Positions 5,959 to 35,254 are shown, counted from the stretch's first letter. The stretch: 37,559 nucleotides of DNA from an uncultured virus (IMG/VR IMGVR_UViG_3300001605_000013) (IMGVR_UViG_3300001605_000013:62001-99559), one strand, 5' to 3'. Program-made: numbers and translations. The notes: generated by a model from the letters alone, not told the origin.

Positions 5959-5962
5959 CTAA

Positions 5963-6548: not shown

Positions 6549-6549
6549 C

Positions 6550-6578: not shown

Positions 6579-6606
6579 ACTCTTAACAACAACAAAGGGA
6601 GATATA

Positions 6607-6843: not shown

Positions 6844-6851
6844 CATTGCTC

Positions 6852-6926: not shown

Positions 6927-6961
6927 TGATATAATTCTTTTATTAATTTAGATGGGAAATA

Positions 6962-8397: not shown

Positions 8398-8405
8398 TTC
8401 TTTAA

Positions 8406-9104
8406 ATGTATAATTCAGAAAATATAGATTACTTAGTATGCATTCCTGTTTATCAGGTCAATGATAGAACCAGGAGATGCATCTATTCCCTAGATAATTA
8501 CGACCAAGTTTTATTAATTGACAATAGTACAAAAAAAGATTGCAGAGAGTTTGAAAGTCTTGGGCTAGAAGTTTCTTATCAGGAAGAAAACATAGGTGTC
8601 CCTAGATCATGGAATATTGGATTAAAAAGAAATCATGAATGGACTTTTGTTGTTTCTAGTTCGATGTTATTTCCTAACGGATTTAAAAAAATAGCAAACA
8701 TGCTTGATGGATATCAAGGTCTCATGTTTAGAACAAGTCATGTATGGCACTGTAATGCAATAAATAAAAAGCTTGTTGAAAAAATAGGATACTTTGATGA
8801 AAATTTTTATCCAGGATATTTTGAAGACTGCGACTGGGATCATAGATGTGGAATAGAAAAAATAGATGAATACGGAAATATTTTAATAGATGCAGAATGT
8901 CAAATAGATGGTGGAGCAACAAGAGATGGATGCCAAGTAAACATTAATGGTGTTCATGATTACTTCAAACAAAAATGGGGAGGTAATAGGACAAGGGATG
9001 GGTGGGGATACTATCAAAATCCATTTGACAATCCAGATTTCCCCATCTCTTATTGGGAACAGAATAGTATAGAAGATTTAAAGAAGAGGTATAGTCTTTC
9101 ATGA
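8406..9104 (+). CDS. GT2-family glycosyltransferase
   Basis: LLIDNS, NIGVPRSWNIG, GYFDENFYPGYFEDCD. Confidence 0.88.
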   Translation: MYNSENIDYLVCIPVYQVNDRTRRCIYSLDNYDQVLLIDNSTKKDCREFESLGLEVSYQEENIGVPRSWNIGLKRNHEWTFVVSSSMLFPNGFKKIANMLDGYQGLMFRTSHVWHCNAINKKLVEKIGYFDENFYPGYFEDCDWDHRCGIEKIDEYGNILIDAECQIDGGATRDGCQVNINGVHDYFKQKWGGNRTRDGWGYYQNPFDNPDFPISYWEQNSIEDLKKRYSLS

Positions 9105-10138: not shown

Positions 10139-10154
10139 TATAATTTATACTCAA

Positions 10155-10226
10155 TGGCGCGTAGCTCAATGGCAGAGCAATCGACTGTTAATCGATGGGT
10201 TAAAGGTTCGAGTCCTTTCGTGCCAG
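10155..10226 (+). tRNA. tRNA-Asn(GTT)
   Basis: Acceptor TGGCGCG/CGTGCCA; ATCGA-CTGTTAA-TCGAT. Confidence 0.93.
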
Positions 10227-10246
10227 CAAAACAGAAGGGTAGATAA

Positions 10247-10771
10247 GTGTCACACAAAGAGCAAAGAGATTTTTTTGAAAAAATAAAAGATATATATCCA
10301 GAATATTTTAAAAATGTATCAGTTATAGAGCTAGGATCACTAAACATAAATGGAACGGTGAGAGATTTTTATGATGCCAACAGGTATGTGGGGGTTGATT
10401 TAGACAACGGTCCTGGTGTTGACTTGGTGTGTGCTGCCCAGGATGTTGATTTCCCAGATAATTCATTTGATATTGCGGTTAGTGCAGAATGTTTTGAACA
10501 CAACCCATATTGGAAAGAAACATTTTTAAATATGCACAGAATGGCAGATAAATTTGTTATCTTTACCTGTGCTAGTGATGGTAGGCCAGAACATGGAACA
10601 ACCAGAACTACTCCGAACAATAGCCCTTTTACTTTAAAGTGGGATTATTATTGTAATCTAAATGAACAAGACTTTCGATCAGAGTTTTACTTAGATAAAA
10701 TGTTTAAAAACTATGAGTTTGTTTATAATGAAAAGTCTTTCGATCTTTATTTTTGGGGTTTGGTTAAGTGA
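10247..10771 (+). CDS. class I SAM-dependent methyltransferase
   Basis: VIELGS, YVGVD, SFDIAVSAECFEH. Confidence 0.9.
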   Translation: MSHKEQRDFFEKIKDIYPEYFKNVSVIELGSLNINGTVRDFYDANRYVGVDLDNGPGVDLVCAAQDVDFPDNSFDIAVSAECFEHNPYWKETFLNMHRMADKFVIFTCASDGRPEHGTTRTTPNNSPFTLKWDYYCNLNEQDFRSEFYLDKMFKNYEFVYNEKSFDLYFWGLVK

Positions 10772-11856
10772 GCAAAAGATCTGTTGCATTTTTAACTATG
10801 GATTGGACAAAAACTACTCCCAAAGAAGCAAATGGTTGCGCTCATTATAGATGCTGTCTTCCATCAGCTGAGCTTAAAAAGTTTGGTTGGGATACAGAGG
10901 TAGAATATCCAGAATATAATCCAAAGTTTGGTTTTGGCTCAAACGCTGGAGATAAATTGGCAAATTATGGATGGGATATAGTTGTATTTAAGTTAATAAT
11001 GCTTAGATCAGTTGCAGAAATAATGGAAAATGCCAAGCCAAATCAAAAGGTAGTCGTTGATGTTGATGATTTTTATGAGGGGCTTCAGGAAACAAACCTT
11101 GCATATAAAAATACAGATCCAGAGGCTCACCCAGAAAATAACAGAGATCATTACTGGAAGATAATTGATTTAGCAGATGCAATAATAACATCTACTCAGT
11201 TCTTGTATGACTTCTACACAAAAGAAAAAGGAAAGACAAATGTATTTCTAGTTCGTAATGGAATAGATATTGATAGATGGAGAAGAAAGCAGGATTATTC
11301 TCGATACCTTCCTACTGTTGGCTGGGTAGGGGCTCTCCCTTGGAGATCAGGGGATCTAGAAACTCTTAGACCTTTTCTAGGAGAGTTTCTTGAAAAAAAT
11401 AGACTAACCTTTCATCATTCTGGTCATATAAAGGAAATGAATCTAGATATAACTGATCTATCAAACATTCCTAAATCAGTTAAGTTTACCCATGAACCAA
11501 GAAAGATTATTAGCCAGTATCCACAAATGTTTAGGAAGATTGATATTGGTCTAGTTCCTCTTAATAATCTTCCCTTTAATCATGCCAAGTCAACGATAAA
11601 GGGTTTAGAATATACCGCTGCAGGGGTTCCATTTATTTCATCATATAGCCCAGAATATGAGCTTTTAACAAGTGAAGGTGTGGGCAGGGTTGCATACAAT
11701 AAAGATGATTGGATTAGGCATTTGACGGAACTACAAGATCCCAAAGTACGAAAAGACGACATAGAGAAAAATTATGAAAATGTAAAAAAAATGCATACCA
11801 TGGAAGTTCGTGGAAAAGATTGGGACAAAACCCTTACAGATATACTTGACATATAA
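10768..11856 (+). CDS. GT-B glycosyltransferase
   Basis: GCAHYRC, VVDVDD, VGWVG, DIGLVPL..LPFNHAKSTIKGLEY. Confidence 0.88.
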   Translation: MSKRSVAFLTMDWTKTTPKEANGCAHYRCCLPSAELKKFGWDTEVEYPEYNPKFGFGSNAGDKLANYGWDIVVFKLIMLRSVAEIMENAKPNQKVVVDVDDFYEGLQETNLAYKNTDPEAHPENNRDHYWKIIDLADAIITSTQFLYDFYTKEKGKTNVFLVRNGIDIDRWRRKQDYSRYLPTVGWVGALPWRSGDLETLRPFLGEFLEKNRLTFHHSGHIKEMNLDITDLSNIPKSVKFTHEPRKIISQYPQMFRKIDIGLVPLNNLPFNHAKSTIKGLEYTAAGVPFISSYSPEYELLTSEGVGRVAYNKDDWIRHLTELQDPKVRKDDIEKNYENVKKMHTMEVRGKDWDKTLTDILDI

Positions 11857-12949: not shown

Positions 12950-13822
12950 ATGCTTGGAATGCATTTTAATGATCCACTAGACTCCCCCCCGAAAACTGAT
13001 TGGGTAAGACTTTGGGATTGTGGAGTAACTTGGAAAGATATACATATTGGACCAAACAATTATGATTGGTCAAGATTAGACTATCTAGTAAATCTTTATT
13101 CCGACAGGAATATTTTATACGTCTTTGCTGCAACCCCTAGATGGTTAGCAAAAGATCCTGATGCTCCACACTTTGCTCCCTGGCTTGGACCAGGATCTAA
13201 CTCGTTGCCATATGATATTGATGAATGGAATAAGTTTGTTTGGATGGTATCAAAAAGATATGCTGGAAGAATTAATGCATATGAAATATGGAATGAACCA
13301 CAATTAGCAGACTTTATGTATCCATATGATACTAAAAACATAAATACTTTAGTCACCATGACAAAGAGAGCCTATAACACCATTAAATCTAATGATAGGA
13401 AGGCCATGGTTGTATCAGCATCAGTTTTGCCAAGACTTTCTAGTGGTGGAATGAAAAGAGCTGAGAGATACCTTAAATCTTTAAAAAAGGGTGGTTGGAC
13501 GGTAGATAGGGTATCATGTCACATCTACCCAGAAGTGGGTATGGGGGCTGCATCTTGGTATTCTTATTTGCAGGATGTAAGGAATTCTGTTAATAGACTT
13601 AAGGGTCCTAGATTAATTTGGGTAACAGAAACAAACTATAATCTCTTGGGAAGCATCCTCGATCCAATATCTTCTGAACGCTTAGTTAGAGATACATATC
13701 GATATGCAGGTAATTCTCCAATATTTTGGTATGGTTGGGGTAAAGATGATATCCTGGGTGGTCTGATCATTAAGGAAAATTCTGCGGCTTGGAAAGAAAT
13801 GCAGAAACATCTTGACAGATAG
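12950..13822 (+). CDS. clan GH-A glycoside hydrolase (GH5/GH39-like)
   Basis: VRLWD, YEIWNEP acid/base and IWVTE nucleophile motifs. Confidence 0.88.
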   Translation: MLGMHFNDPLDSPPKTDWVRLWDCGVTWKDIHIGPNNYDWSRLDYLVNLYSDRNILYVFAATPRWLAKDPDAPHFAPWLGPGSNSLPYDIDEWNKFVWMVSKRYAGRINAYEIWNEPQLADFMYPYDTKNINTLVTMTKRAYNTIKSNDRKAMVVSASVLPRLSSGGMKRAERYLKSLKKGGWTVDRVSCHIYPEVGMGAASWYSYLQDVRNSVNRLKGPRLIWVTETNYNLLGSILDPISSERLVRDTYRYAGNSPIFWYGWGKDDILGGLIIKENSAAWKEMQKHLDR

Positions 13823-13840
13823 ATAAATATTCTGTATAAT
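13812..13840 (+). promoter_or_regulatory. consensus SigA promoter
   Basis: TTGACA-17 bp-TATAAT. Confidence 0.85.
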
Positions 13841-13964
13841 CTGTGTGTAGGAAAAAATATTTTAAGATTCGGGTGAAAATAATGGAGCATGATGATCAAT
13901 GCGAAAATAGCAGGGGATGGGTTGGATTCCCTTGCGAGTGTGAAAATAGATCTCAGGATAATTA

Positions 13965-15049
13965 ATGTCCTATTGTAGATTTATAGAAGCAGATGCATAC
14001 ATCTATGATGATGTATATTATGGCCTTTATTGTTGTGCGTGTTCTCTTATGCCTCTCCGCACAGAGTACAGCACATTCTTTAAAGAAGATATCACAATGA
14101 ATGAAAGCTTTGTTGCAGGATACGACTATGACAAAATGCTTGCTCATGTTGCAAAGCATCGTGAAGCAGGAGATTATATCCCAGAAGATGTGGATGAAAG
14201 ATTAATTGAAGAACGAGACTGCAAACATGTGTTTGTTGAAATGAAATATGGAGTACGTTGTGAAAAATGCTGGCGACCTCAAGACATTTAGTTCAGTAGA
14301 ACAATTAATGGAGGATCTTGATAACGTGAAGATAACTAAGACACTACACATAACCTGGTTTTATCAACGGGTTAAGCGTAGTATTCGTAATGCTATTCGC
14401 ACCCCCAAATGGTGGTATCAGCGTGCCAAGCGAGGGTATAGCGATAGGGATGTGTGGAACGCAGACATTTACCTGGCAGGAGTATTCGCAGGAGTTCTTG
14501 ACTGGTATATCCACAATGGCATGGGTGTCTCAATGGCTTACAAAGACCCAAATGACCCATATTGTGAAGATGTAGAAGCCATGGTGATTAGAAGGAATAC
14601 TGATTACTTAAATCACATTGCAATTTTTCAGAAGTATGCAAACAACGGTATTGCTTGGGATGAAGAAGACGCAAAAGAATTTGGCGGGGTACTTGACAAG
14701 GATATCAAGGCTAGCGTACACTGGTTGTCTGAACACTTTACAGAATTGTGGGATTAATATGATTAAAGTAACTACAAGACACGGAACTTACTACATTATT
14801 GATAAGGAAAATCAGATTGCCAAGCGTGTCAAGGGTGATGAACGTAACGAGATGTACGGGGATGAAGAATGGTTTGAGTTTTCATCTGTTCATTCATATG
14901 TGAGAGAAACTAATACGCATGGTGATGACATTGAAATTGGCAAAGATATGTACTTCTTTCTCCGTGGACCCCGTTACTATGACTGGCGCATCAGTACTAC
15001 CGTCACTTCTATTGAGGAAGTTGTTGACAACTACCCCTCACAGGAGTAG
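13965..15049 (+). CDS. three hypothetical proteins (13965-14291, ~14326-14757, 14759-15049)
   Basis: Consecutive ORFs; the start of the middle ORF is uncertain. Confidence 0.7.
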
Positions 15050-15058
15050 AATATTACC

Positions 15059-15331
15059 ATGAACAGACTAAAGAAGGCTCGCGTTAAGAAGTCTCTTGCT
15101 TGGAAGGCAGAGACAATGGATCTTGTCTACCTTGAGAATACAGATATCAAGATTTGGACTCACAAGAAGGAGTTGTGCATGGGACAACACTGTACCGTTC
15201 ATAATCTTTCTAGTCACTCTATGCGCTCATTCCCACAGCATTGGCGAGGGGACAGGGCAATCATGGAGCGTATCTGTCCTCATGGTATTGGACACCCAGA
15301 TCCTGACGAATATAAACTAACTGTACTCTAA
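15059..15331 (+). CDS. conserved-looking phage protein, C-terminus apparently frameshifted
   Basis: CTVHN...MERICPHGIGHPDPD; GIHGCDG continues in another frame. Confidence 0.7.
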   Translation: MNRLKKARVKKSLAWKAETMDLVYLENTDIKIWTHKKELCMGQHCTVHNLSSHSMRSFPQHWRGDRAIMERICPHGIGHPDPDEYKLTVL

Positions 15332-15506
15332 GCATGAGGGTATTCATGGTTGCGATGGATAGCTGTGCGAGATAAAGTTNTCCTTTCGCGTAGAGGAGAC
15401 TTTTATGATGTGTTTATCAATGGAAAGCATCGTGGTTCAGGAACATGGGCATATGTTTCTACCGCCCACGCTTTTTATCTTATGGAAGGAATGAAAGTAG
15501 AAATCA

Positions 15507-16941
15507 ATGAGTGACTATCTAGAACTACCTCTCTATCTTGAGGAAGAAAAGACAGTAGATCTGTGGGTATACACAGAACCAAATAAGTTCTTCATTATTA
15601 AGAATGTTAATTCAGATCCAATTAGATATCAGGGTTGGTGGTCAATTTCGTTTGTTCAATACAATCGTTATGCAACTACCCACATTGAATCGTCTAAAGT
15701 AATGTATTTCGTAACGATAGACAATGAGGACAACACATGAAAGTATACGATACTGCCAGTGCTATTAGTCAGATTGATTGTAATGACTGGGTTAAATTAC
15801 AGGATGTTGAATCTATTATCGCCAAGGTAAGATCAGAATATGTTAACTCTAAATGTGTGTGGGGTGAAGGAGAATGCGTACTTGACTGCCCATCCTGTAA
15901 AAGAATGAACGAGATGCTTGCAGAGCGTGCAGCAGGGGATAGGGAAGGACAACGAGACATGCTTAATAGATGTATTGCAGCAGTAGAAGCAATAGAAAAT
16001 GATTTTAATAGTAGTGCAGAGTGGGATAGAGACTATGATGTAGATCCATCAGGGAATACACGCAATCCTAGAATATGGATTAGAGAAGCAGTCTCTGCCA
16101 TGCGTTCCTTGGAGGTTGAACTATGACATATCCAGAACCATATGGGTTGGAGTGCGGGGCAGGGTGGAAAGATATCGTTGACCGTACCCATGAGAAACTA
16201 AAGTATATTGATCCTGACTATACAATTTTTCAGATCAAAGAGAAGTTTGGCGGCCTCAGATATTATTTTGATACTTCCCTTGAATATGGATCTACCCCTC
16301 ATAATATTATGAATGACATTGTTTCGGCAGCAGAATTTGAAGCATCCAATACCTGCGAAATGTGCGGTACATCTGGAAGAATCAAAGAAGTAGAGCTAAG
16401 AGTAGACCACTATTGGTACTACACATACTGTAAAGAATGTTCTGACAAACACATTGCAGAACGTAACGAAAGATTCGGTCGTAAAAATGATTAAATGTTG
16501 GAACTGTAATATGGAATTAGATACGCCTGTAAGTTCGGCGGAAAAAATAGAGAAACAAGGCCAACCTATAAACACATCCCATCCCTGGTGGAATGGCAAT
16601 GTAGCCATTGACTTTAGCACCGAAGAGTGGGGGTATATTCTTAATGTGTTATCTTCCCTTGTTGAAACTGCTCGCATGTACGGATGGGCAGACACGGTGG
16701 CAGAAGCAGACATTCGTAATATTATGGATCGTATAGAAAAGAACATAGGAGTAGAGTAATGAAAGATAAGTTTATTACATTTGGAATTGGATTGGCGATG
16801 CTTATTGCACTTTCCATACTGATAGTGTTGATTGTTAATACAAGCCTTGGTTTGTGGATTATTTTTGGAATCTTTGTACTTGTAGCATCTTATGTCATGG
16901 GTACTCTTGCTCGTGAAGTCTGGCGACTAAGAAAACTATGA
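15507..16941 (+). CDS. five coupled hypothetical proteins (15507-15740, 15737-16126, 16123-16494, 16487-16759, 16759-16941 membrane)
   Basis: ATGA/TAATG overlaps; 16123 ORF has the common phage motif QIKEKFGGLRYY; the last has two TM helices. Confidence 0.75.
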
Positions 16942-25075: not shown

Positions 25076-25301
25076 GACATACCTTTCATTAGTAGATAGC
25101 CTTACCCTATCTCATAAACATAGAAATGTCAAGGGTTTTAGCGAATTTTAGCGATTTTTCTTAATGCTTCGTAAATGAATTTTTATTTATTATTATATAG
25201 AAAAAATGGTCCGGCCCGCAAAAACCGTTGGTATGCAACAGCTTTTGAGAGGTGAGCAGTTTTACATCATGGGGTGCAAAATAGGGTGCTATAATTATAG
25301 T

Positions 25302-25694
25302 ATGAAGATTTGCATTAGGTGTCACAAGAAGTTATCACTAGAAAAATTTGGAAAACATCCAACGTCAAAGGATGGATATAGGAATCAGTGCAATCACTGT
25401 CGATATGAACTACGAAAAGAAAGACCTACATATCAAAAACAAGTTAGACAATATAGGTACGGAATAACTCAAGAAGAATACGATAAAATTTTAAAATCTC
25501 AAAACAACTGTTGTGCCATATGCAAAATAGAATTTTATAAAACTCCGCACATAGATCATTGTCATGAAACTAAAATTGTTAGAGGGCTTTTATGTTCCAA
25601 TTGTAATAGTGGAATAGGATTATTGGGTGACGACCCCCGTAGACTGAGAGCCGCCACCCAATACCTAGAGATTACGCAAAAGCAATCTCTTTGA
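25302..25694 (+). CDS. endonuclease VII-family (free-standing homing-type) nuclease
   Basis: CAIC, HIDHCH...VRGLLCSNCNSGIG; opposite strand to neighbours; TATAAT 6 bp before ATG. Confidence 0.9.
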   Translation: MKICIRCHKKLSLEKFGKHPTSKDGYRNQCNHCRYELRKERPTYQKQVRQYRYGITQEEYDKILKSQNNCCAICKIEFYKTPHIDHCHETKIVRGLLCSNCNSGIGLLGDDPRRLRAATQYLEITQKQSL

Positions 25695-26667
25695 CAATGG
25701 ACATGATTTTATTTTTTGAGGCATTGGTAGCAGCATCAAAACCTGATGCAGCAGCGAGAACAGATTCTGCATTACCACCGCGAGGGTTACGATACCAGTC
25801 AAGACGCTCTGTAATTGCATTCATAGCACCCCACGCGGTTCCCTTGATATTGACACATGTCTCACCAAAATAAATATCGTTGAGAGTGTCAATCTTGGTC
25901 TCCCACTTTGTCATAGCACCCTTTACATCTTCCTCTGGCTTTGCATAGACAGCGGTGATGATGTCAAAGAATTGCTTGTCAGAGATTTCCTTAGCGATCA
26001 TCTCGTTTGCAATTTTGTCGAATGCGTCAAGGTAGGTGTTAGCCATACCCAATGCCTCGCGTGCCGCAGTAACCTTGCCCTGCAAAGTCTGAGTGTGACG
26101 AATGCGGAATGATTGCTTTGCACCACGACCCTTGGAACCAACAGCCATGTTGAGAGTGTTCTGGCAGACAACACGGACAGGTGTAACGCTTGCCTGAATT
26201 GCAAGTGAACCATCATGTGATGTGTGAACCAAAAGATAGTTATTGATTTTGTCACCACGACCCTTGGGATCTAGGTTGGTCTCACGATTGAGAGCGAGGG
26301 AACCAAAAACAACAGTGCCGTTTTTGATTGAGCCAGCGGTCTCCCACTGTCCACCATCAAGAAGGTTATCGCCAAACTGAAAAAGTTCTTCGTTTTGCAA
26401 TACCTTGTAACGCTCACCCACAACACCAAGCACATCATTCTCACCGTCAAAAGGATTGGTGCGAACGGTAGCAAAGTAATCGCGGTGTGATCGACCTGGG
26501 AGTGCTAATTCTTCCACACGAACATCCCAACCTGAGAGGTGTGCTAGACTAAGCATTTCAGAAGTGCTTACGGGTTCGTCAATGACAGTTCCAAGACCAT
26601 GCCAAGCGGGTTGGCGCAAGGAAGCAAAGGAAGCCATTTCGCCATATTGTTCTAACATGTGAGCCAT
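25672..26667 (-). CDS. DUF932 family phage/plasmid protein
   Basis: PAWHGLG, LGVVGERYKVLQNEELF, WETAGS, SHDGS, TPVRVVCQNT, IRHT. Confidence 0.93.
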   Translation of the reverse strand: MAHMLEQYGEMASFASLRQPAWHGLGTVIDEPVSTSEMLSLAHLSGWDVRVEELALPGRSHRDYFATVRTNPFDGENDVLGVVGERYKVLQNEELFQFGDNLLDGGQWETAGSIKNGTVVFGSLALNRETNLDPKGRGDKINNYLLVHTSHDGSLAIQASVTPVRVVCQNTLNMAVGSKGRGAKQSFRIRHTQTLQGKVTAAREALGMANTYLDAFDKIANEMIAKEISDKQFFDIITAVYAKPEEDVKGAMTKWETKIDTLNDIYFGETCVNIKGTAWGAMNAITERLDWYRNPRGGNAESVLAAASGFDAATNASKNKIMSIVKEIAFA

Positions 26668-26828
26668 GTGATTTTCCAATCTCTAGTAGTTGATGTGATA
26701 ACAGTATCAGAATAAGGAAGCATTGTCAATAGATAAATAAGAAAACTAGAGGTATTTTGGTGTGGTCTTAATCACATCGTAAAAGCTTGACAAAAGTGAA
26801 AAAACGGGCCGGGCCCAAAAATTGAGAG

Positions 26829-26874
26829 TCCCCCTAGGGAGCAAGGGTGGGGGGTATGCTCAACCTAGAGGGAC
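26829..26874 (-). terminator. long GC-rich hairpin after tRNA-Asp (terminator or processing stem)
   Basis: GTCCCTCTAGG...CCTAGGGGGAC; only a weak U tail. Confidence 0.5.
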
Positions 26875-26876
26875 AG

Positions 26877-26949
26877 CGATTCTGATGGGATTCGAACCCA
26901 CGACCTCCACCGTGACAGGGTGGCGAGCACTCCGCTGCTCTACAGAACC
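26877..26949 (-). tRNA. tRNA-Asp(GTC), copy 1
   Basis: CCACC-CTGTCAC-GGTGG; acceptor GGTTCTG/CAGAATC. Confidence 0.93.
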
Positions 26950-27006
26950 ATTGTATTATTTTTTATGTAGCACAGGATCTCATGAGTCCTCTCCTTTCAC
27001 TACTCG

Positions 27007-27074
27007 CACCTCGTCTAGGAATTGAACCTAGCAAGACAAGTTTTGGAGGCTCGTCTGTACCCAGTACCCAAGGC
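27007..27074 (-). tRNA. atypical tRNA-Trp(CCA) with reduced D arm
   Basis: T arm CTAGG-TTCAATT-CCTAG, loop CTCCAAA, acceptor GCCTTG/CGAGGT, 68 nt. Confidence 0.65.
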
Positions 27075-27176
27075 TAGAATGTGAAGGTATCTAGGCTTAC
27101 TCCTTCACAATTGACTTGCAGCGAGACAAAACATTTTTTGCCATATCTCTATTATGTTAGTACACTAGACTGCAAG

Positions 27177-27257
27177 TGGGGAAGCGAGTCGAACGCATGA
27201 ATCCCTGATTCACACTTGCCGCAGCCCAATGGCTTTGTCTAGGTCGCATATCCCCAA
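27177..27257 (-). ncRNA. T-loop-containing structured RNA with no recognisable anticodon arm
   Basis: TGGGGA/TCCCCA closing stem, AGCC/GGCT and TGAATC/GATTCA hairpins, GCG-TTCGACT-CGC. Confidence 0.55.
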
Positions 27258-27290
27258 GTCACTATTTAGTTAGAGTTTTATTTTACCAGA

Positions 27291-27437
27291 CTACTTGACG
27301 GTAGTCCAGCGAGTGCCGTTGTCAGTCATCAGACGCAGACGGACGGAACCCGAAGGATTCTGGACGATCTCCTCAATCGTTCCCTGCACACCGCTCTTGA
27401 GGGTGGTGAACTGTGAGCCAACAGTGAGTGTAGACAT
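27291..27437 (-). CDS. 48-aa beta-rich protein (not in ORF track)
   Basis: MSTLTVGSQFTTLKSGVQGTIEEI...RWTTVK*; GAAAGGAAG RBS; TTGACA-18-TAAGGT promoter at ~27477-27506. Confidence 0.8.
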   Translation of the reverse strand: MSTLTVGSQFTTLKSGVQGTIEEIVQNPSGSVRLRLMTDNGTRWTTVK

Positions 27438-27533
27438 TTTGCTTCCTTTCGATTGTTTGTTTGTTGTTATGGTAGAACCTTATCAGATAGGTGGGGTACT
27501 TGTCAAGGACTTTCCCCCACCGTTATCAAATTG

Positions 27534-27833
27534 TTATGAAACTTTTGTAACATCTTCAGGTCTAGATAGATGCCAGTAATATAACTCGCCGTCTATTACT
27601 TTGCTATCCCACCAAGCATTTTTACGCCACGCCCAATAGTGACTATCTTTGTGGCACTTAGTTTGATTCAACTCTTCCCAAGAATAAGTTATTCCAGAGG
27701 GTACTGATATTTTCCATCTATCTTGATAGAATGTTTTTCCTGATACAGTCCAACAGTTCAAACATTCAACAACTATGTTTGCAGTTGGCTCATCAATAAT
27801 TCTTTTTCTATCATATTTGTTTGGAATAATCAC
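27534..27833 (-). CDS. hypothetical protein
   Basis: 99 aa, GAGGGAG RBS. Confidence 0.65.
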   Translation of the reverse strand: MIIPNKYDRKRIIDEPTANIVVECLNCWTVSGKTFYQDRWKISVPSGITYSWEELNQTKCHKDSHYWAWRKNAWWDSKVIDGELYYWHLSRPEDVTKVS

Positions 27834-27856
27834 TCTCCCTCATCATTATCAAATTG

Positions 27857-28342
27857 TTACCAAGAGGCTTGGTAGTAGATTTCCCATTCCCAGTTATCCT
27901 CAGGAATAACAGAGAGAACATGGTCAATCATTTTTATGGTATCGCTTAGATCTTCCATGTACCATTCGTCAATCTCACTACTGCCAAAGAAGAATCCTTG
28001 GGTAGGGGGAAGAACTTCCCCAGCCATAGCAGGCTGAGAAACAGCGGCCTTGCAGAGATCACGCAACTCTACCAATTTCTCACGGGGTACAGGAATCTCT
28101 TGGCACTCATCTACACCACCAGCCAATTCATTAACGAACCAACCATGAATAGCATTAGCCTTGCGCCAGTATCCAACGGGATAAGAAACAGAGATACCAG
28201 CAAATTGAGAATACTTAGTTAGTCCTTCTAACCCTGACATATTGACGAGGGTAGAAAATTCTGGAACCTCTGTGCGAGAGTCACCCTTGTAATTATGTTG
28301 ACTCACATACTTGCGAGCATTGAGATACATGTCCAAACCCAT
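27857..28342 (-). CDS. conserved phage hypothetical protein
   Basis: MGLDMYL...YWRKANAIHGWF...GFFFGS...YYQASW. Confidence 0.88.
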   Translation of the reverse strand: MGLDMYLNARKYVSQHNYKGDSRTEVPEFSTLVNMSGLEGLTKYSQFAGISVSYPVGYWRKANAIHGWFVNELAGGVDECQEIPVPREKLVELRDLCKAAVSQPAMAGEVLPPTQGFFFGSSEIDEWYMEDLSDTIKMIDHVLSVIPEDNWEWEIYYQASW

Positions 28343-28433
28343 TTTGGAACCCACCTTTCCTTTGTTGTATATACACACCCTATCACAGGGGTCTGACATT
28401 TGTCAATAGTTTATTTAGCTTGTTATCAAACTG

Positions 28434-28631
28434 TTATAATTCAGTAAGCAAGGCAAATCGTTTTGTAGCCTCTGCCTCAACATGACGGCGGTATCCTTCT
28501 TCATCCACCAAAACAAAACGGTAGTCAAGACTATCCCCATCTTCAATATCTGTAATACGATATATTGCACCCTGGATAGTAATTTGATCCCCCACTTCAA
28601 GAGAATAGGCTTCCATGTTTTCAGTAGTCAT
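28434..28631 (-). CDS. small SH3/KOW-like protein
   Basis: AYSLEVGDQI...YRITDIE. Confidence 0.7.
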   Translation of the reverse strand: MTTENMEAYSLEVGDQITIQGAIYRITDIEDGDSLDYRFVLVDEEGYRRHVEAEATKRFALLTEL

Positions 28632-29116
28632 TTGATTCCTTCTTCCAACGATTATTTTCACGCTTGCGTATTACCTTAGCAGATTCACGAGGGTAGCAGC
28701 AAGTACACCCCTTATGACCATTTCTTGCTATGTTTTTATTTGATCTAATCATGAATGAAACATATCATAGTTTTTTATGTTTGTCAAGAGCTTTGGCGAG
28801 GTTTTTAGCGATTTCTTAATTGTTTTCTTAATCAAGATGTTTCCAGAAAAAGGGGGGCCGGATTTTTTCCTCAAAAAACCCTTTAATACCAACAGCTTTT
28901 CACACCCAATACAAACTAGCAAAATATATAGCAATACCAATAAGAATTAGCCCGACAATTCCCTTTATTACCACCATTTATTTTCCCGTCTGATTATTTA
29001 TTTCATTATACAAATTTATTATTGTTGTCATGTCAAAGTCGCCATGTGGAGCGTTATGACTTTTTAGAATTTCTAGCAATGCCTCCCACGCTTGCGAGGG
29101 TAGTGTTACAGATATG

Positions 29117-29674
29117 TCATGCATGATTACCCCTAACGACAATCCAGATAAGTGCCTGCGCGGTGCGAGGCGTGATACCAAATTCTTTTGCAACATTGCG
29201 AACAGAATCCGCGAGTGTATTGTATTGTGTTTTATTTACACCCTTGGATGCATCAAGTCCCGCAGCACGAATCATCCAAACGTCAATCACGACAGCGTTA
29301 GGGTCACCTGCAATGGCGCGTGCAAACGCATTAGTCTTTTGACCATTGAGTGCATCGAAACCTAATTCCATTGCAGACTCTGCCATGCGATAGTTATTCT
29401 GTAAACCGCTAACGGGCTTGCCCATTGAGAATGCGAGAGCCTTAGCAACATTGGATGACCAACGCTCACGAGGTGAGAATGCGCTAACGATAGATGCGCC
29501 AACCTCAAGCGATACGCCTAAGTTTTCTGCAACGTCTTCCGCAACTTCCTGCGCCTCGTGATACCATACAGAGGCTTGCTCAAGTTGTCCAAAGTTGGCT
29601 TGCAAGATGCATTGCATGTAGGCATATTCAGAAACCTGGGACAGGACAGCGGGGGTATCAGTAAGTGTGTTCAT
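29117..29674 (-). CDS. phage protein with HhH DNA-glycosylase-like motifs
   Basis: WY, SAFSPRERWSSN, GQKTNAF, VVIDVW, QALIW; leaderless TTGACA/TAGGTT promoter. Confidence 0.7.
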   Translation of the reverse strand: MNTLTDTPAVLSQVSEYAYMQCILQANFGQLEQASVWYHEAQEVAEDVAENLGVSLEVGASIVSAFSPRERWSSNVAKALAFSMGKPVSGLQNNYRMAESAMELGFDALNGQKTNAFARAIAGDPNAVVIDVWMIRAAGLDASKGVNKTQYNTLADSVRNVAKEFGITPRTAQALIWIVVRGNHA

Positions 29675-29691
29675 GTATTTAACCTATCATA

Positions 29692-29832
29692 TTAGTCAGA
29701 GAATGTCAAGCTTTTGTGCTTATTTTTTCTAGTATATTTTTTCTTGTTGGCATGGCGAGAGGCAGCACTAGAACGCCTCAATTCTTGCCAATAGCGAATT
29801 TCCTCAGAGGTTCGCTTTCGATTCTTTATCAT
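29692..29832 (-). CDS. 46-aa highly basic peptide (not in ORF track)
   Basis: MIKNRKRTSEEIRYWQELRRSSAASRHANKKKYTRKNKHKSLTFSD*; leaderless after TAGGAT. Confidence 0.7.
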   Translation of the reverse strand: MIKNRKRTSEEIRYWQELRRSSAASRHANKKKYTRKNKHKSLTFSD

Positions 29833-30549
29833 GTAATTATCCTAACACATGGGTCTGACATTTAGGTGGCAAAATATGAAAATTAGGCAGCAAAAACAGT
29901 GTGTCTTAAATCACTTCTTAAAGACTTGACATTTGTGAAAAATCGTGCCGGGCCGCGAAAAACCGTTGGTATATAAGGGTTTTTTGGTGTATCTCACGAC
30001 TAGCAAAATCCCTTTATTCCCAACTATTTTTCAGCGATGCAAAGTTCGCAAGGCAGCTGTTAAAAACTCCTTTGCTACCAACGGATTTTCAATATTCACC
30101 ATTGCACGTTTGATATTATTTGAGATGTGAAACTCTTTGAGTGTTAGTTCTTTGTTAGTCTTCATCTAACATCTCCCCGCACTTAGAACAAAAAACATCT
30201 TCACCTTCCCAATATGCAGGACGGTTGCAATGTTGGAAACTGATATCCAAACTTTCTGTCATTGTCCAATCATAGATAGTCAACTAAATCACCGTCCATT
30301 ATTTCACTAACGTCTACACCTTTTGCTTCTGCAATTGCTTCCCACAATTCTTCCTCGGAAAAAATTCCATCTTCGGGAAGGTAGTCAAGATAGTCTTTCA
30401 TGCTAACCCACTTTCATAGTTTTTAATTTCATTTCTAATGTTGTCAAGGTTTGCAACTAACATCATTTCATTGCAATACAAACAAACTTCGTCCCACATG
30501 TTTGATCGAGGGTTTTCAGTTGATTCACACATTTCACATACAAAGTCGT

Positions 30550-30753
30550 TCACACTGCACCCCTAAAAAATAGATAAGTCATATTGTGATTGTCAATTCT
30601 GATACCTTTGTGTTCCATTGGATAGACGTTGCAACCTTCTGACATATCCTCTATCAGTTGCTCCCCCGCAATATCCTCAGCAACTAGATACACTTCATCG
30701 CTCAATGGTATAAGTGTCCCAGTTCCCTGGTGGTATATAAATAGTTTTTTCAT
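30550..30753 (-). CDS. hypothetical protein within a cluster of small ORFs (~30250-31130)
   Basis: GGAGG RBS, 67 aa. Confidence 0.65.
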   Translation of the reverse strand: MKKLFIYHQGTGTLIPLSDEVYLVAEDIAGEQLIEDMSEGCNVYPMEHKGIRIDNHNMTYLFFRGAV

Positions 30754-31154
30754 TAGTCCTCCTGATTATCTAGAGCATGATCAATGGTGTCAATAACGTG
30801 ATCAAAGTATGCGAACTTCTCGCTATCCCTTGCGTCTGTCAGGATCATGATAACAGTATCCCAATCTGATCGGGGCATAGAAACTTTTACCATTAGAATG
30901 GAACCTCCACAAATTGTGTTTTACCAATATACAGTGTGCCATCATTGGCATGAAATACCTTGGATTGATCGAAGGCATTTTCCTCAAAGGTTAGATAAAT
31001 ATCTAGCCAAGCGTGCTCAAAGTCATTTGACATTTTCATTTCGATTCCTCTCGACATAGTGGCCAATGCAATGGCCGTGGGGTTGGATTCTCTCGCCAGT
31101 TCTGGCATGTTTCGCATGTTTTCATGGTTTCACCTTAGCATAGGGGTCTGACAT

Positions 31155-31230
31155 TGGCGACCCTGATGGGATTCGAACCCACGACCTCCACCGTGACAGG
31201 GTGGCGAGCACTCCGCTGCTCTACAGGGCC
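31155..31230 (-). tRNA. tRNA-Asp(GTC), copy 2, CCA encoded
   Basis: Same body as copy 1; acceptor GGCCCTG/CAGGGTC. Confidence 0.95.
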
Positions 31231-31237
31231 AAGGTAC

Positions 31238-31438
31238 TTAGCGGCAAGGTTGCTGCCAAGCGTTCCAACTACCGATCTCACAATCGATGCAACGGTAGCA
31301 GTCATCAACTACACCAATACGGTGTGAGGCATCATTAGCCTGACGAACACTTTCAGGGATAGCCTGAAGGCGAGGCTTTTCGATAGTCTGATACCATTCT
31401 CCGTAGGAGAGGTGCATGTATTCCATTCGATTTGTCAT
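31238..31438 (-). CDS. small Cys-containing protein
   Basis: 66 aa, CYRCIDC; GAAAGG RBS behind a box promoter. Confidence 0.75.
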   Translation of the reverse strand: MTNRMEYMHLSYGEWYQTIEKPRLQAIPESVRQANDASHRIGVVDDCYRCIDCEIGSWNAWQQPCR

Positions 31439-31488
31439 TTTTCTAACCTTTCTTTCTATGCCCTAAGGCTATCATAGGGGTCTGACAT

Positions 31489-31635
31489 TTACACCAAGGA
31501 TAGGTGCTTGCCAGACTCTCCGATAGTTTGTACATCAAGCACACGCCCAAAGAATGTGGGGTGCTCGGTTGGGTCACCTTCGGTTTCTACACGCACGGTC
31601 TGACCATTGGTAAGTTTTACGAGGTAAACGAACAT
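31489..31635 (-). CDS. 48-aa protein, paralog A
   Basis: MFVYLVKLTNGQTVRVETEGDPTEHPTFFGRVLDVQTIGESGKHLSLV*. Confidence 0.85.
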   Translation of the reverse strand: MFVYLVKLTNGQTVRVETEGDPTEHPTFFGRVLDVQTIGESGKHLSLV

Positions 31636-31667
31636 TTTATTTCCTAACTTTTCGTTTCTTTCTATGT

Positions 31668-31859
31668 CTAAAGCCTAGCACGGGGGTCTGACATTGGGGG
31701 GTAGATTTGTTCAGAAACAATGCGCTCACGCCAGATAGTTCTGTGCTCTGGCTCGATATGTCCCCGCTCATGTACTCGTGCATATTCTGCCTTCTCAAGC
31801 GTGTCATATGAAGCCGCAAAGTCTCCGTCAAGAGAAACAAAGTAGGTCCATTTATTCAT
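31668..31859 (-). CDS. small leaderless hypothetical protein
   Basis: TAGGAT-6 bp-ATG; 63 aa. Confidence 0.7.
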   Translation of the reverse strand: MNKWTYFVSLDGDFAASYDTLEKAEYARVHERGHIEPEHRTIWRERIVSEQIYPPMSDPRARL

Positions 31860-31887
31860 GATGAAATCCTAGCACTAGGGTCTGACA

Positions 31888-32034
31888 TTACACCAAAGAC
31901 AGGTGCTTGCCATACTCTCCAATAGTTTGGACATCAAGCACTCGACCAAAGAAGGTAGGGTGCTCGGTTGGGTCACCTGCGGTTTCTACACGCACGGTCT
32001 GACCATTGGTAAGGGTAACTAGGTAAATAAACAT
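31888..32034 (-). CDS. 48-aa protein, paralog B
   Basis: MFIYLVTLTNGQTVRVETAGDPTEHPTFFGRVLDVQTIGEYGKHLSLV*. Confidence 0.85.
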   Translation of the reverse strand: MFIYLVTLTNGQTVRVETAGDPTEHPTFFGRVLDVQTIGEYGKHLSLV

Positions 32035-32142
32035 TCTTTATCCTTTCGATCTAGTAATTAGATCCTAACACAGGGGTCTGACATTGGAAGCGTTTACAAT
32101 CCCATATGTCCGATTTTGTTTTATAACAGTTTGGTAACAAAG

Positions 32143-32286
32143 TTATCCACATATCCACAGAAGTTATCCACAAGACGAAAAGTTGTTTATTTGCAAGGGT
32201 TTTTTAGGCTAAAAAGTTGTTGCAATATAAGGGTTTTCAGGGTTTTCCACATAACTACATAAGAGCTGTGGATAACCTGTGGAAAA
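32143..32286. promoter_or_regulatory. DnaA-box cluster 1 (3 perfect, 3 one-mismatch)
   Basis: TTATCCACA 32143 and 32164; TGTGGATAA 32267; variants at 32151, 32243, 32278. Confidence 0.8.
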
Positions 32287-32417
32287 CGGGCCGGGCTGCA
32301 AAATCCCTTTAATACCAACAACTTTTAGACGTTTACTGCATAGACAGCACAACCAATTACAAAAACAAAAACCAAAAATAATGAAGGCACAAAAAACTCC
32401 TTTAGTATCAACAACTT

Positions 32418-33255
32418 TTAGGCGCGGTGGTTATCCAGGAACTGATCTATCAAATTATTAGGAACCCAAGGGTACACACATGTATCTGATTCAGCAGGTG
32501 ATCCATCATGATACTCTGCAAACTCTGGAATGATTTGTGTTACCCATTCATTATCTTTGAAGAATGCTAATTCACTTTGTGTTTTGCTAGAGTAAGTTCC
32601 ATGACCCACAACAACAGAAACAGTATCTGCTAACGCATGATGAATTTTTATTTTCATGATTAACCTTCTAAGTATTGAGCGGTAGCGGAAACAAAATCAA
32701 TCGCGTTAGGTTTGCGATCAAATGCAAACGTGAATGCATCTAGTTCGTTGTTTAGATAGTTGTATACGTTGGCGGTATGCGAACCGTTCCAAACAATTTG
32801 CAGGGTAGGTGTATTGATTTGCATTTCAGACCTCCAACAATTCGAATGATTTGATAGAACTACCTGCGTTAATAACGCCTTGCAAAGTTGCAACGATCAT
32901 TTCTGATTCTGTTGCCAATTCTGGTAGGGGGTGGGTCATGGTGTGTTCACCATAGACACTGACAGATGTTACCTTGAGAGATTTCATTTTTTTTCCTTTG
33001 TTTGTTTAAGTTGATTATATAGTGAGGGTCTGACATTTATGCCCTCATTAGGGGGTATCTAGATAACAGTTAGATAACGGTTATCGTTACGTTTTCCCAA
33101 ACCTCTTGGGCGCAAGTGGAGCAACGCTCACACATTGGCGTAGTTTGGACAGTACCGCTAGACAGTACGCGAGAGACATTCTCTATCGCATTATGACGAG
33201 TAGCAGATGAGAGGCATAGGAAGCCATTGCACTTGATTTTGTTTACAGTGATCAT
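32418..33255 (-). CDS. small hypotheticals (32418-32657, 32660-~32825, 33070-33255 zinc-binding)
   Basis: ORFs with RBS; 33070 ORF has CxxxxC and CxxCxxC. Confidence 0.65.
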
Positions 33256-33594
33256 TTTATGATCCTTTCTTTTGTTTCTTTATCTTGTAGCCCTAGGCTA
33301 TCATAGTTTGTTTAGTTTGTCAAGTTTTTGGGGGTGTGAGTTAGATCACTTTTTTAGATCTTCGTTGCACTTGTAGCAAACCCGATTTACGTTGGTAACA
33401 TGACCTTTACCGTCTAGGCAGAACCCATTAGGTGCTAGTACTTTACCTTCTAGTGTGAAACTGTTGAACATTTTATTTCTTCTTTCTTTCTAACTTGTTT
33501 ATCTTTATGAGTGTAACTCTAGCACACAATTACCAAAAAGTCAAGAGACAAAACGGACATTTAGATGAACAATAGATGAACAACAATTCACAAG

Positions 33595-33692
33595 TTATCC
33601 ACAAGATAGGATGTCAAATCGACACGCCGATTTTAGGGAAATTGTTACATAAGCGTAACCTTAACATAAGCCTGTGGATAACCTGTGGAAAA
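33595..33692. promoter_or_regulatory. DnaA-box cluster 2
   Basis: TTATCCACA 33595; TGTGGATAA 33673; TGTGGAAAA 33684. Confidence 0.8.
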
Positions 33693-33779
33693 CTGTCCGG
33701 CCTCGAAAATCCCTTTAATACCAACAACTTTTCGGTGTATCTCACGACTAGCAAAAAGTTGTTTAGTACCAACGGTTTT

Positions 33780-33986
33780 TTATGGTGTCCAAGTATAGGG
33801 GTAGTCTCCATTAGGTAGTGCATCAAACGAACAGCCTGCATCTAATGCGGCTTGCACGTTATTGCTTGCTTGAAATTTTGCACACTGTTCTTGTGCGTCC
33901 ATCATTCCCGCTACTCCCATGATTGCAACCATGAAAGACAACAGAGCAACGATAGCAACGCGCTCACCTCGTTTAGTTAGATTCAC
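33780..33986 (-). CDS. small single-TM protein
   Basis: GTG start, MNLTKRGERVAIVALLSFMVAIMG. Confidence 0.7.
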   Translation of the reverse strand: MNLTKRGERVAIVALLSFMVAIMGVAGMMDAQEQCAKFQASNNVQAALDAGCSFDALPNGDYPYTWTP

Positions 33987-33987
33987 T

Positions 33988-34152
33988 TCACACCCCCACT
34001 GCTTGCATGAATCGAACGCGATCAAATTTCGGATTATCGTCTGCAAAATAATCTGCAAACTCTTTTGCAATTGCTTGCACCACATCACTAGATTCATCTA
34101 GGTATTCATTTAGAATTTCAGCGGTAACTACATAGTCTTTGCGTGTCATCAT
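33988..34152 (-). CDS. 54-aa conserved phage protein (not in ORF track)
   Basis: MMTRKDYVVTAEIL...DDNPKFDRVRFMQAVGV*; AAGGA RBS. Confidence 0.8.
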   Translation of the reverse strand: MMTRKDYVVTAEILNEYLDESSDVVQAIAKEFADYFADDNPKFDRVRFMQAVGV

Positions 34153-34326
34153 TTTACTGTCCTTTGTTAGTTTTCTTCTTTGTTGAATTCAATTTCTTCT
34201 TGGACTAGTCTAATGACATATCCAAGGATAGTTCCTGTAAGAATAAAGATTGCGACATCTAATAGCATTTCATTTCTCATTTCTTTTTGTTGATTAGATA
34301 TTACCATGGGGGGTATGACAGTGGAG

Positions 34327-34446
34327 TTATGGGCGTACCCACTTTCCATTGACGTTGTTCCATTCGCCACAACCTGGGCACTCCATTGCAACGATAGCAG
34401 GGGCAGGCTTGCCATGACCTTGGCATGGTGTCTTTCGTGTTTTCAT
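34327..34446 (-). CDS. 39-aa Cys-containing peptide
   Basis: MKTRKTPCQGHGKP...ECPGCGEW...VRP*; purine-rich leader. Confidence 0.5.
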   Translation of the reverse strand: MKTRKTPCQGHGKPAPAIVAMECPGCGEWNNVNGKWVRP

Positions 34447-34479
34447 TTTCTATCTCTTTTCTTTCTAGTTTGTGGGGGT

Positions 34480-34546
34480 GAGAGGAGCGATTATTTGCTA
34501 GGCTCATGTCTTTCGACCTTATTTGCTAGGCTCACGCTCTACTCTC
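34480..34546 (-). ncRNA. two-fold symmetric structured RNA
   Basis: Outer stem, two copies of UGAGCCUAGCAAAUAA, inner GUC-GAAA-GAC hairpin; just downstream of a promoter. Confidence 0.7.
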
Positions 34547-34619
34547 TATTTATTTGTAGTCTTAGACTATCATAGGGGTCTGACATTTCAGCCCTTATTT
34601 GAGGGGTGTTTGGTAACGA

Positions 34620-34832
34620 TTAGATAACGGTTACCAGATCAGTGAAGGTGTATCCACTACCGTTAGGGTAGACAACCTTGATGGTGATTCCATCATTGAC
34701 ATTGTGGAAGGCTTCTACCACAGTACCCTCGCCTCTCCATGAGGCTAGGACAGTGCGACCGATCCACTCATGAGCGATAGGACGGGGGGCTATGTGAGAG
34801 CCAACGATTTTTCTAGCGGTTTGGAGATTCAT
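34620..34832 (-). CDS. small SH3-like protein, first leftward gene
   Basis: 70 aa, IGRTV...GEGTVVE. Confidence 0.7.
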   Translation of the reverse strand: MNLQTARKIVGSHIAPRPIAHEWIGRTVLASWRGEGTVVEAFHNVNDGITIKVVYPNGSGYTFTDLVTVI

Positions 34833-35037
34833 TTTCTTACCTAACTTTCTTTCTTACTTTGTTTTATCTTATGGCGACAGTCTAGCACGGGGGTCTGACA
34901 TTGACCGATAATAGGACACATTAGGCAACGGTATCCGCAGATATGACTAGATAAATCAACGAATACAGTTGTATGTATNGGTAATAAAAAATTCTTCAGT
35001 CGACTTTTGATTACTTTGATACGAATATCGTTGATAG

Positions 35038-35057
35038 TTATCCACAGGTTATTCACA
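35038..35057. promoter_or_regulatory. DnaA-box pair 3, beside an AT-rich tract
   Basis: TTATCCACA-GG-TTATTCACA. Confidence 0.75.
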
Positions 35058-35254
35058 AACCAGCGAGGTGGTCACACTATTATAAATCGGACATTTAGTA
35101 CAAAATGCGTACCGTACATTTCCGTAAAATATTAAATTTTACTCAAAACTGAAAATACAAAAATTTTAAACTTTTACCAAATATGAAAATCGAAGGTATA
35201 CAAAAATATTAAACTTTTGTCAAATGTAAAATATTTTTATTGTATAATATATAT

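Follow-up and report, generated by a model that had tools for sequence, protein, structure and literature searches.

A covarying RNA hairpin with a repeated internal-loop module behind predicted early promoters of uncultured phages

Why should a phage carry two identical 16-nt words inside one short hairpin, directly behind what appears to be an early promoter? The question is raised by an element of about 67 nt in the window, by which is meant the whole stretch of 37,559 nucleotides analyzed here, the last 37.5 kb of a 99.6-kb virus record (G000). On the minus strand, positions 34546-34480 read GAGAG-UA-GAGCG, UGAGCCUAGCAAAUAA, G, GUC-GAAA-GAC, A, UGAGCCUAGCAAAUAA, U, CGCUC-CUCUC. The copies of the 16-mer UGAGCCUAGCAAAUAA are at 34534-34519 and 34506-34491, and the whole window contains none beyond these two, even at 3 or fewer mismatches. 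A sequence-only reading of this DNA had described a promoter-proximal RNA in which the repeats face each other across a symmetric internal loop, and the positions it gave for the element, the two repeats and the -10 sequence are all exact on re-reading. The parts of the element and of its predicted transcription unit are as follows.

34561-34588, minus strand: predicted promoter from the sequence, box AAATGTCAGACCCC (34588-34575) and extended -10 TG-A-TAGTCT (34572-34564)
34547-34556, minus strand: A-rich 5' leader CAAAUAAAUA, from the predicted start site (7-nt spacing after the -10) to the outer stem
34535-34546, minus strand: P1 5' strand GAGAG-UA-GAGCG, pairs with 34489-34480 and covaries across the family
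34530-34534, minus strand: module 1 (outer loop), 5' strand UGAGC, from reading and family scan
34526-34529, minus strand: P2 5' strand CUAG, pairs with CUAG 34501-34498 in the minimum-free-energy fold; compensatory variants elsewhere
34518-34525, minus strand: module 2 (inner loop), 3' strand CAAAUAA followed by G, from reading and family scan
34508-34517, minus strand: P3 hairpin GUC-GAAA-GAC, from reading, fold and family covariation
34502-34507, minus strand: module 2 (inner loop), 5' strand UGAGC preceded by A, from reading and family scan
34498-34501, minus strand: P2 3' strand CUAG, partner of 34526-34529
34490-34497, minus strand: module 1 (outer loop), 3' strand CAAAUAA followed by U, from reading and family scan
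34480-34489, minus strand: P1 3' strand CGCUC-CUCUC, from reading, fold and covariation
34447-34479, minus strand: A/C-rich unstructured spacer with a purine-rich ribosome-site-like stretch AGAAAGAAAAGAGAUAG, from sequence
34327-34446, minus strand: opening ORF of the operon, encoding 39 aa that include Cys/His pairs; more tiny ORFs follow down to about 33780

Folded by itself, the window copy reaches a minimum free energy of -17.5 kcal/mol (z -2.39), which is equaled by 4 of 200 shuffled sequences, an only modest advantage; the CUAG tetrads of the two repeats already pair with each other in this fold. That the element is not a product of chance follows instead from comparative evidence, namely the recurrence of paired repeats across viral loci and the covariation of the stems. 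The sequence-only reading had proposed searching viral contigs with the 16-mer, and this search recovers the exact word in at least 119 loci, mostly as pairs 25-34 nt apart, with stems that covary. Paired instances with at most 2 mismatches per copy number 124, of which 98 are distinct, and were aligned with MAFFT using no structure in the fitting. The three-helix model imposed on this alignment gives 85.4% paired cells, compared with 65.6% after shuffling, and 230 cells changed on both sides, compared with 73. The covariation score is 0.360 against 0.094 for shuffled alignments, a value reached by 0 of 500 shuffles, and falls to 0.126 or less when the partners are slid by 1-3 columns.

All three helices contribute to this result. 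The outer stem averages 4.97 bp, as opposed to 2.52 ± 0.12 when 3' flanks are dealt to other instances, is at least 4 bp long in 88 of the 98 distinct instances, and is built from 55 different stem and closing combinations. The apical helix P3 is 2 to 6 bp long and closes loops of 4-8 nt, with examples running from CC-GAAA-GG to UGUGA-CCAGUA-UCACA; it is 92.3% paired, and four of its five pairs have changed on both sides. In P2, the upstream repeat of five distinct instances reads CUAC and the downstream one GUAG, a model-based search of the flanks adds the compensated insertions and substitutions CUAAG/CUUAG, CUUAG/CUAAG, CUAGG/CCUAG, and CUAAU/AUUAG, and one further copy has CUGAG/CUCAG. On these comparative grounds a P2 helix of 4-5 bp between the repeats is proven. 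Since the CUAG tetrads pair, as the compensatory variants indicate, the unit comprises two 5x7 loops and no open 16x16 loop; the symmetric loop of the sequence-only reading, with the repeats simply opposed across it, is therefore refined to one interrupted by P2.

The conserved unit is a 5x7 asymmetric internal loop, 5'-(R)UGAGC-3' opposite 5'-CAAAUAA(N)-3', lying between ordinary helices, and the window copy is one coaxial hairpin in which two inverted UGAGC/CAAAUAA loops are separated by the 4-bp CUAG/CUAG helix. Because two loops of about 5-7 layers are joined by a P2 of 4-5 bp, the loop centers would lie about one helical turn apart, as far as simple geometry indicates. The structural identity of the element can be regarded as nearly certain. 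The strand of the folded molecule is also indicated by the alignment, which contains 27 G-U cells where the opposite strand would give A-C. Together with the constant orientation of the element relative to a promoter-like site and ORFs, these cells identify the folded molecule as the transcript of this strand and not duplex DNA. A DNA operator had been named as the alternative in the event that homologs kept the repeats without the stems; they keep both, with compensatory changes in the stems, and the RNA assignment is the one that stands. A double-stranded operator is refuted by the variable spacing, the covarying stems, the G-U pairs on one strand and the fixed orientation.

Most instances were found by way of the exact 16-mer, and conservation of its letters is therefore partly built in. 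Because seeding with an exact word inflates conservation, two relaxed scans were run, each fixing one strand plus CUAG, so that only one strand is freed at a time. With UGAGC-CUAG fixed (99 distinct matches), the 3' strand of the inner loop is CAAAUAA in 81, CAAGUAA in 3, CGAAUAA in 2 and CGAUUAA in 1, and that of the outer loop is CAAAUAA in 59, CGAAUAA in 27, CAAGUAA in 1 and CGAUUAA in none, the rest being unrelated sequences. With CUAG-CAAAUAA fixed (80 distinct matches), UGAGC recurs in 74 outer and 77 inner loops, and AGAGC occupies the outer-loop 5' strand in 3. Approximately 11 of the 12 loop positions are nearly invariant while all helices vary freely, a combination that indicates specific recognition rather than mere stability. 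The helix-side base beside each loop is mostly a purine that faces another base; at the 5' position it is A in 52, G in 36 and C or U in 10 of 98, and in the RNAalifold model it may pair with the U of the loop. The possibility that the repeat encodes a tiny ORF (AUG/GUG-AGC-CUA-GCA-AAU-AA) was rejected, given that any base precedes UGAGC and that neither a ribosome site nor a wobble pattern accompanies it.

The number of loops per hairpin is not fixed. One-loop hairpins occur in two viral contigs (L070 and L065) and in the genome of a relative (G007), and a three-loop form, in which the two halves of an additional outer copy enclose the two-loop unit (UGAGC-CUC[...]GAG-CAAAUAA), occurs in 8 of the 98 distinct instances. 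The loop is thus a modular unit used one, two (inverted) or three times per hairpin, and the existence of all three forms fits autonomous binding sites stacked for avidity. A homodimeric partner had been among the earlier suggestions; two inverted loops spaced by about one turn would accommodate a dimer well, but the one-loop and three-loop forms show that a strict homodimer is not required. In one contig (L105), a CCCCC/GGGGG hairpin just 3' of the two-loop element on the minus strand has CCUAGCAAAUA in its loop, and part of the repeat has therefore been reused as a hairpin loop.

The element is predicted to begin about 10 nt past the start site of an extended -10 promoter, with TAGTCT at 34569-34564 and TG upstream at 34572-34571. 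Across the family, a TGnTAnnnT sequence ends 15-50 nt ahead of the first UGAGC in 85 of 118 distinct members, and AAATA lies in the final 35 nt upstream of the motif in 100 of 118. Downstream, the gap to the first ORF (39 codons, with no match to a PHROG family) is 33 nt in the window, and in 113 of 124 instances a same-strand ORF with a purine-rich ribosome-site-like stretch starts within 150 nt. The distance from element to start codon varies from about 12 to 126 nt, and the first ORFs (28-104 aa) belong to many unrelated small families, indicating that the element is not dedicated to one particular gene. Throughout the family it shares the orientation of the promoter-like site and the downstream ORFs. 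The earlier description of a promoter-proximal RNA is borne out to this extent, and the element is probably transcribed as the 5' leader of an early operon of tiny genes. One metatranscriptome contig matches 34474-34552 without a difference and then runs into the promoter DNA of a relative, which may reflect DNA carry-over or read-through; the RNA evidence consists of assembled contigs of public runs, four of five of which are probably DNA-containing wastewater libraries.

The surrounding early region has a repetitive organization of its own. A family of box promoters with the pattern AATGTCAGACCCC-N3-5-TGnTAnnnT (repeat families D1 and D3) is present in 8-9 copies on the minus strand at window 28356-34903, with the box too near the -10 for a normal -35; the MotA boxes of T4 offer a comparison, and by analogy the box may be the site of a phage activator. 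In some other contigs the box lies downstream of the RNA element, and a TTGAC-N17-extended -10 promoter drives the element instead. Repeat families D2, D5, D10, and D12 (25203-33781, including 33706-33781) are long A/U-flanked hairpins of the GUUGUUGG/CCAACAAC type plus a short GC hairpin, and often precede a pair of DnaA boxes. They are probably bidirectional terminators punctuating the early units, judging from their sequence and placement; the simple terminator scan does not call them, and the hairpin at 33781-33706 in its 141-nt context folds no better than shuffles (z -1.09). The same scan finds no terminator-like site on the minus strand of the window.

The record, from a siphovirus-like phage of about 100 kb, encodes portal, terminase, a 1962-aa tape measure, a DnaE-like polymerase, ribonucleotide reductase, and glycosyltransferases. 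Since it carries a WhiB-family gene (window 1126-1311, plus strand; 53.8 bits, above the Pfam cut-off, with control matches in Corynebacterium only), the host is probably an actinobacterium, and probably a freshwater one. Eight tRNA genes are distributed over window 5885-31230 on both strands, and those at 26877-26949 and 31158-31230 (minus strand) lie within 80-nt stretches that are 93% identical. Some of the tRNA genes are interspersed in window 1655-11856 (plus strand) among glycosyltransferases, a Nol-like carbamoyltransferase and a SAM methyltransferase, a block that is a large sugar-modification cassette for a phage. In the coordinates of the full record, 13213-16881 (plus strand) is an ORF of 1222 aa between an endonuclease VII-like gene and the portal gene, PHROG-negative at E ≤ 1e-5. 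The window contains a single N, at 34978, within the ORF 34841-35056.

The element is essentially a phage feature. In prokaryotes (one genome for each of 185,579 species, 596 Gb) the 16-mer occurs at 84 loci, no excess over chance, and among the 80 of these that were modeled only 5 have the real element, all on contigs of metagenome-assembled bins, with 6 matches above 60 bits; the viral loci number at least 119. Exactly one copy is found in G000 and one in each of five other genomes of about 100 kb, and some contigs are richer, with two to four copies packed into about 1.5 kb, either in tandem or on opposite strands where the early region is divergent. Thirteen contigs whose DNA polymerase is 66-87% identical to that of G000 were compared. 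The two-loop element is present in G006 and G014, and G007 has a one-loop hairpin. In G008 and G009, both 100% complete with terminal repeats, the element is absent, and loop-pair patterns that include the known variants give chance matches in coding regions only; the other eight contigs are 47-71% complete, and lack of a match in them says little. G008 has no DNA similarity to the 2.3-kb early region around the element, and G009 shares promoter-sized pieces only, while 55 ORFs are common to all ten whole genomes. The element is accessory and rides in a hypervariable early region. Its absence from two complete close relatives indicates that it is dispensable for the basic lytic program, and a dispensable element is a poor candidate for an origin, a packaging RNA or an antiterminator on which the phage depends.

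The sequence-only reading did not recognize the family, and database searches give the same outcome. At the gathering threshold, Rfam 15 (4227 models) returns 8 tRNA matches for the whole window and nothing else, and for 34380-34660 at E up to 10 it returns only a chance-level STnc390 match on the opposite strand (13.5 bits, gathering 50); CRISPR direct repeats, ToxI, 6S, riboswitches, and ribozymes are among the models without a match at the element. GenBank phages give no blastn match to the region or to the 72-nt element, a search in which the 16-mer cannot reach E ≤ 10. The 16-mer is absent, as DNA or RNA, from the literature searched, in which CAAAUAA and UGAGC occur together in unrelated contexts only, among the matches listed. 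The motif is likewise absent from the searched passages and six supplementary files of Fremin et al. 2023 (PMC10690425); it may be one of the more than 10,000 unnamed candidates of that study, the alignments of which are probably held in its files 1, 2, and 4. As far as Rfam 15 and the searched literature extend, this is a large RNA family of uncultured phages described nowhere. Few phage non-coding RNAs have a defined fold, and fewer come from phages of the abundant, hard-to-grow freshwater actinobacteria.

What the element binds was approached through gene content. The most widespread neighboring gene family is present in 33 of 79 loci, and no ORF of G000 follows the motif exactly, occurring in each of the 7 genomes that bear it and in neither of the 2 that lack it; the best tracking ORF, 36 aa and antisense, occurs in 6 of the 7, and the 54-aa third gene of the motif operon in 4 of the 7. 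The neighborhood and presence/absence comparisons therefore yield no phage-encoded candidate partner. A scan for host mimics with UGAGCC-N4-34-GCAAAUAA matches in 191 of 401 genomes of the class to which the genome G019 belongs, and most of the matches listed lack the internal helix.

The invariance of a two-stranded loop amid free helices, the autonomy of the unit, its variable copy number, the strong early promoter, the lack of a link to any gene and the patchy distribution lead us to favor a docking module. The element would be a docking platform or decoy for a conserved trans-acting factor, a tentative reading to which a probability of roughly 40% is assigned on the basis of sequence comparison. 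Each loop would dock one copy or subunit of the factor, which would more likely be a host than a phage protein, and the RNA, abundant from its strong early promoter, would serve as an accessory binding platform or decoy in host take-over. Its dispensability resembles that of other early take-over or counter-defense cargo, by analogy. A more novel reading, speculative and on balance doubtful, is that UGAGC/CAAAUAA is a natural high-affinity aptamer module that, in 1-3 copies, would capture and neutralize a conserved host component at the onset of infection; the target could be a nuclease or sensor of host defense, a protein associated with RNA polymerase or the ribosome, or a signaling nucleotide of immunity. 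If true, this would be an RNA-only, mix-and-match counter-defense or take-over device of a kind not yet described. Whatever binds the element is likely a central host or phage component of early infection. The element is short enough for immediate biochemistry and structure determination, its invariant loops offer clean mutant controls, its patchy presence among near-identical genomes provides a natural comparison with and without it, and the loop module could become a small orthogonal RNA tag.

Among the rival explanations, an element acting in cis in the manner of put survives best, as an unlikely alternative in which the nascent hairpin would bind host RNA polymerase and make it resist pausing or termination through the punctuated early region. 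The size class of about 70 nt and the site just past an early promoter are as described for HK022 putL in passages of PMC9378689, four contigs (L021, L066, L074, and L084) carry copies on both strands of a divergent early region in a manner comparable to putL/putR, invariant loop letters fit contact with a highly conserved enzyme, and the A/U-flanked long hairpin at 33781-33706 lies about 0.8 kb downstream. This proposal is nevertheless weakened by the two complete close relatives that do without the element, by the architecture of one coaxial hairpin with repeated loops rather than two stem-loops, and by the terminator scan, which is negative on the minus strand. Furthermore, only one of the 8-9 box promoters of G000 carries the element, and the early units, each served by a separate promoter, have no obvious need of read-through.

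A processing or stability element, that is, a site for host RNase III, E or J, or a shield, setting the half-life of the early mRNA, seems quite improbable. Although the position near the 5' end of an mRNA leader would suit this role, and a stack of about two turns interrupted by internal loops is reminiscent of the sites that RNase III recognizes in the early RNA of T7, neither stability nor RNase III calls for 12 fixed letters in every loop, hairpins with a single module fall below the length that RNase III needs, and about 10-20 nt stay unpaired at the 5' end. The further proposal that the loops bind a small molecule or ion, with the leader tuning early genes or soaking up a signaling nucleotide, is improbable to a still greater degree. 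A 5' UTR in which covarying helices frame invariant internal-loop nucleotides is what a riboswitch classically looks like, and repeated modules could bind cooperatively or with high capacity; an expression platform is, however, missing, with no terminator after the element and no pairing to the ribosome site, the distance to the start codon varies as described above, the downstream genes have no shared function, and modules 3-6 bp apart in one helix are unlike the tandem aptamers known to us. A generic riboswitch was rejected on the first two of these grounds.

DnaA boxes are a conspicuous feature of the same early regions. In 248 kb around family members, perfect copies of TTATCCACA, which we take to be the DnaA-box consensus, number 126, compared with 2.8 ± 1.6 after shuffling, a 45-fold excess, and 61 of 134 boxes fall in a peak 100-300 nt upstream of the element. 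In G000, 6 of 7 perfect boxes lie at window 32143-35038, and 1 lies in the other 62 kb of the genome. The boxes mostly form pairs with a spacing of 11-12, 21 or 41-42 nt, placed in the interval that separates a hairpin from the early promoter following it; boxes also lie at 1371-1391 of contig L075 and at most of the loci surveyed. A box occurs at -350 to -60 in 37 of 119 instances, compared with 2 of 73 in the downstream control; the boxes therefore characterize the early region in this lineage and not the RNA itself. This distribution suggests that the early region is controlled by host DnaA or else titrates it, in which case phages may read or tie up the host replication initiator through boxes that punctuate their early promoters. 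The divergent intergenic region at window 34904-35239 has an origin-like layout, with a DnaA-box pair at 35038 and 35049 and three AT-rich direct repeats of about 29 nt at 35126-35231 (periods 34 and 43), and in G001-G003 a dense array of 3-5 DnaA boxes lies about 10 kb from the RNA element. A role at the DNA level, as an operator or iteron, a single-strand origin hairpin or a promoter-stem-loop recombination cassette, might be read into the enriched boxes, the usual single copy per genome and the origin-like stretch 0.5-0.7 kb upstream in the window, but it is very remote given repeats spaced 25 to 34 nt apart with a covarying hairpin between them, G-U pairs on this strand only, an orientation that always tracks promoter and downstream genes, boxes near fewer than a third of instances, three genomes whose denser box array is separate, and absence from complete relatives, which is impossible for an origin.

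Comparison with known systems places the element, read as a docking module, apart from each of them. The ncRNA arrays of UG27 systems have units of about 135-167 nt in the parts of the preprint that describe them (bioRxiv 10.64898/2026.09.22.753630), whereas the element is about 70 nt long and single-copy. A retron msr/msd or a UG27 template RNA was rejected in any case, since G000 has no RVT_1 match (the control matches in 3 genomes). ToxI-like antitoxin RNAs are tandem identical repeats of a whole unit of 34-45 nt. A ToxI or pseudo-ToxI was rejected because only 16 nt are repeated here, with a period of 25 to 34 nt, a spacer unlike the flanks and no match to ToxI in Rfam; a Pfam search of G000 for ToxN gives no match, but as its control matches nowhere either, it carries no weight.

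Kink-turns and UAA/GAN loops serve as protein or tertiary docking sites and are, like the present module, short, asymmetric, purine-rich internal loops between helices. In a kink-turn, a 3-nt bulge leads into tandem sheared G-A and A-G pairs, which call for a G-A step on both strands. In the element the 3' strand is CAAAUAA, without a G, in 81 of 99 inner and 59 of 99 outer loops, CGAAUAA being common in the outer module only, and the tandem core therefore cannot form. UGAGC contains GAN and CAAAUAA contains UAA, a likeness that provides a lead. To our knowledge the use of the same internal loop one to three times in one helix has no described counterpart.

Free-standing bacterial sRNAs such as CsrB and RsmZ present GGA in the hairpin loops of separate stems. 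They and the element both repeat a short invariant motif on a variable scaffold, with a copy number that differs among relatives, but the element, unlike them, uses a two-stranded internal-loop motif, stacks its modules in one helix and would lie in a phage mRNA leader. The PeSL cassettes of T4-type phages also combine a promoter with a hairpin and recur before many unrelated small early genes, but their hairpins are plain stems with a presumed part in gene shuffling. The element differs in its invariant loops, covarying helices and varying number of modules, which indicate that selection acts on the RNA fold itself.

In a nut site, a boxB hairpin whose loop is conserved comes after a conserved boxA. 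The apical hairpin of the element is often GNRA-capped, which is a likeness to nut, but its loop is not conserved (GAAA, GCAA, GACA or loops of 6-8 nt), unlike that of boxB. A nut site was rejected, the only boxA-like letters (CGCUC) being the 3' strand of P1, which unrelated sequences replace in other members. Lambda-type nut (boxA plus boxB) and the element remain alike as promoter-proximal leader signals of early operons, as set out for nut in the Introduction of PMC9378689. The putL and putR sites of HK022, which passages of the same source describe as two stem-loops that bind the zinc-binding domain of the RNA polymerase beta' subunit, resemble the element in being folded RNAs of about 70 nt just past early promoters, with an action that does not, or in the element would not, depend on which genes follow, and with copies on both arms of a divergent early region in some cases (PMC9378689). 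Like put, the element is found on the sense strand downstream of an early promoter, in this case one predicted from sequence, and the length fits, though the fold is not one of two stem-loops. According to those passages put belongs to lambdoid coliphages, whereas the element belongs to phages of probable actinobacterial hosts and is missing from complete close relatives; and put is formed by two separate stem-loops, whereas the element is one coaxial hairpin of three helices with one to three invariant loops (PMC9378689).
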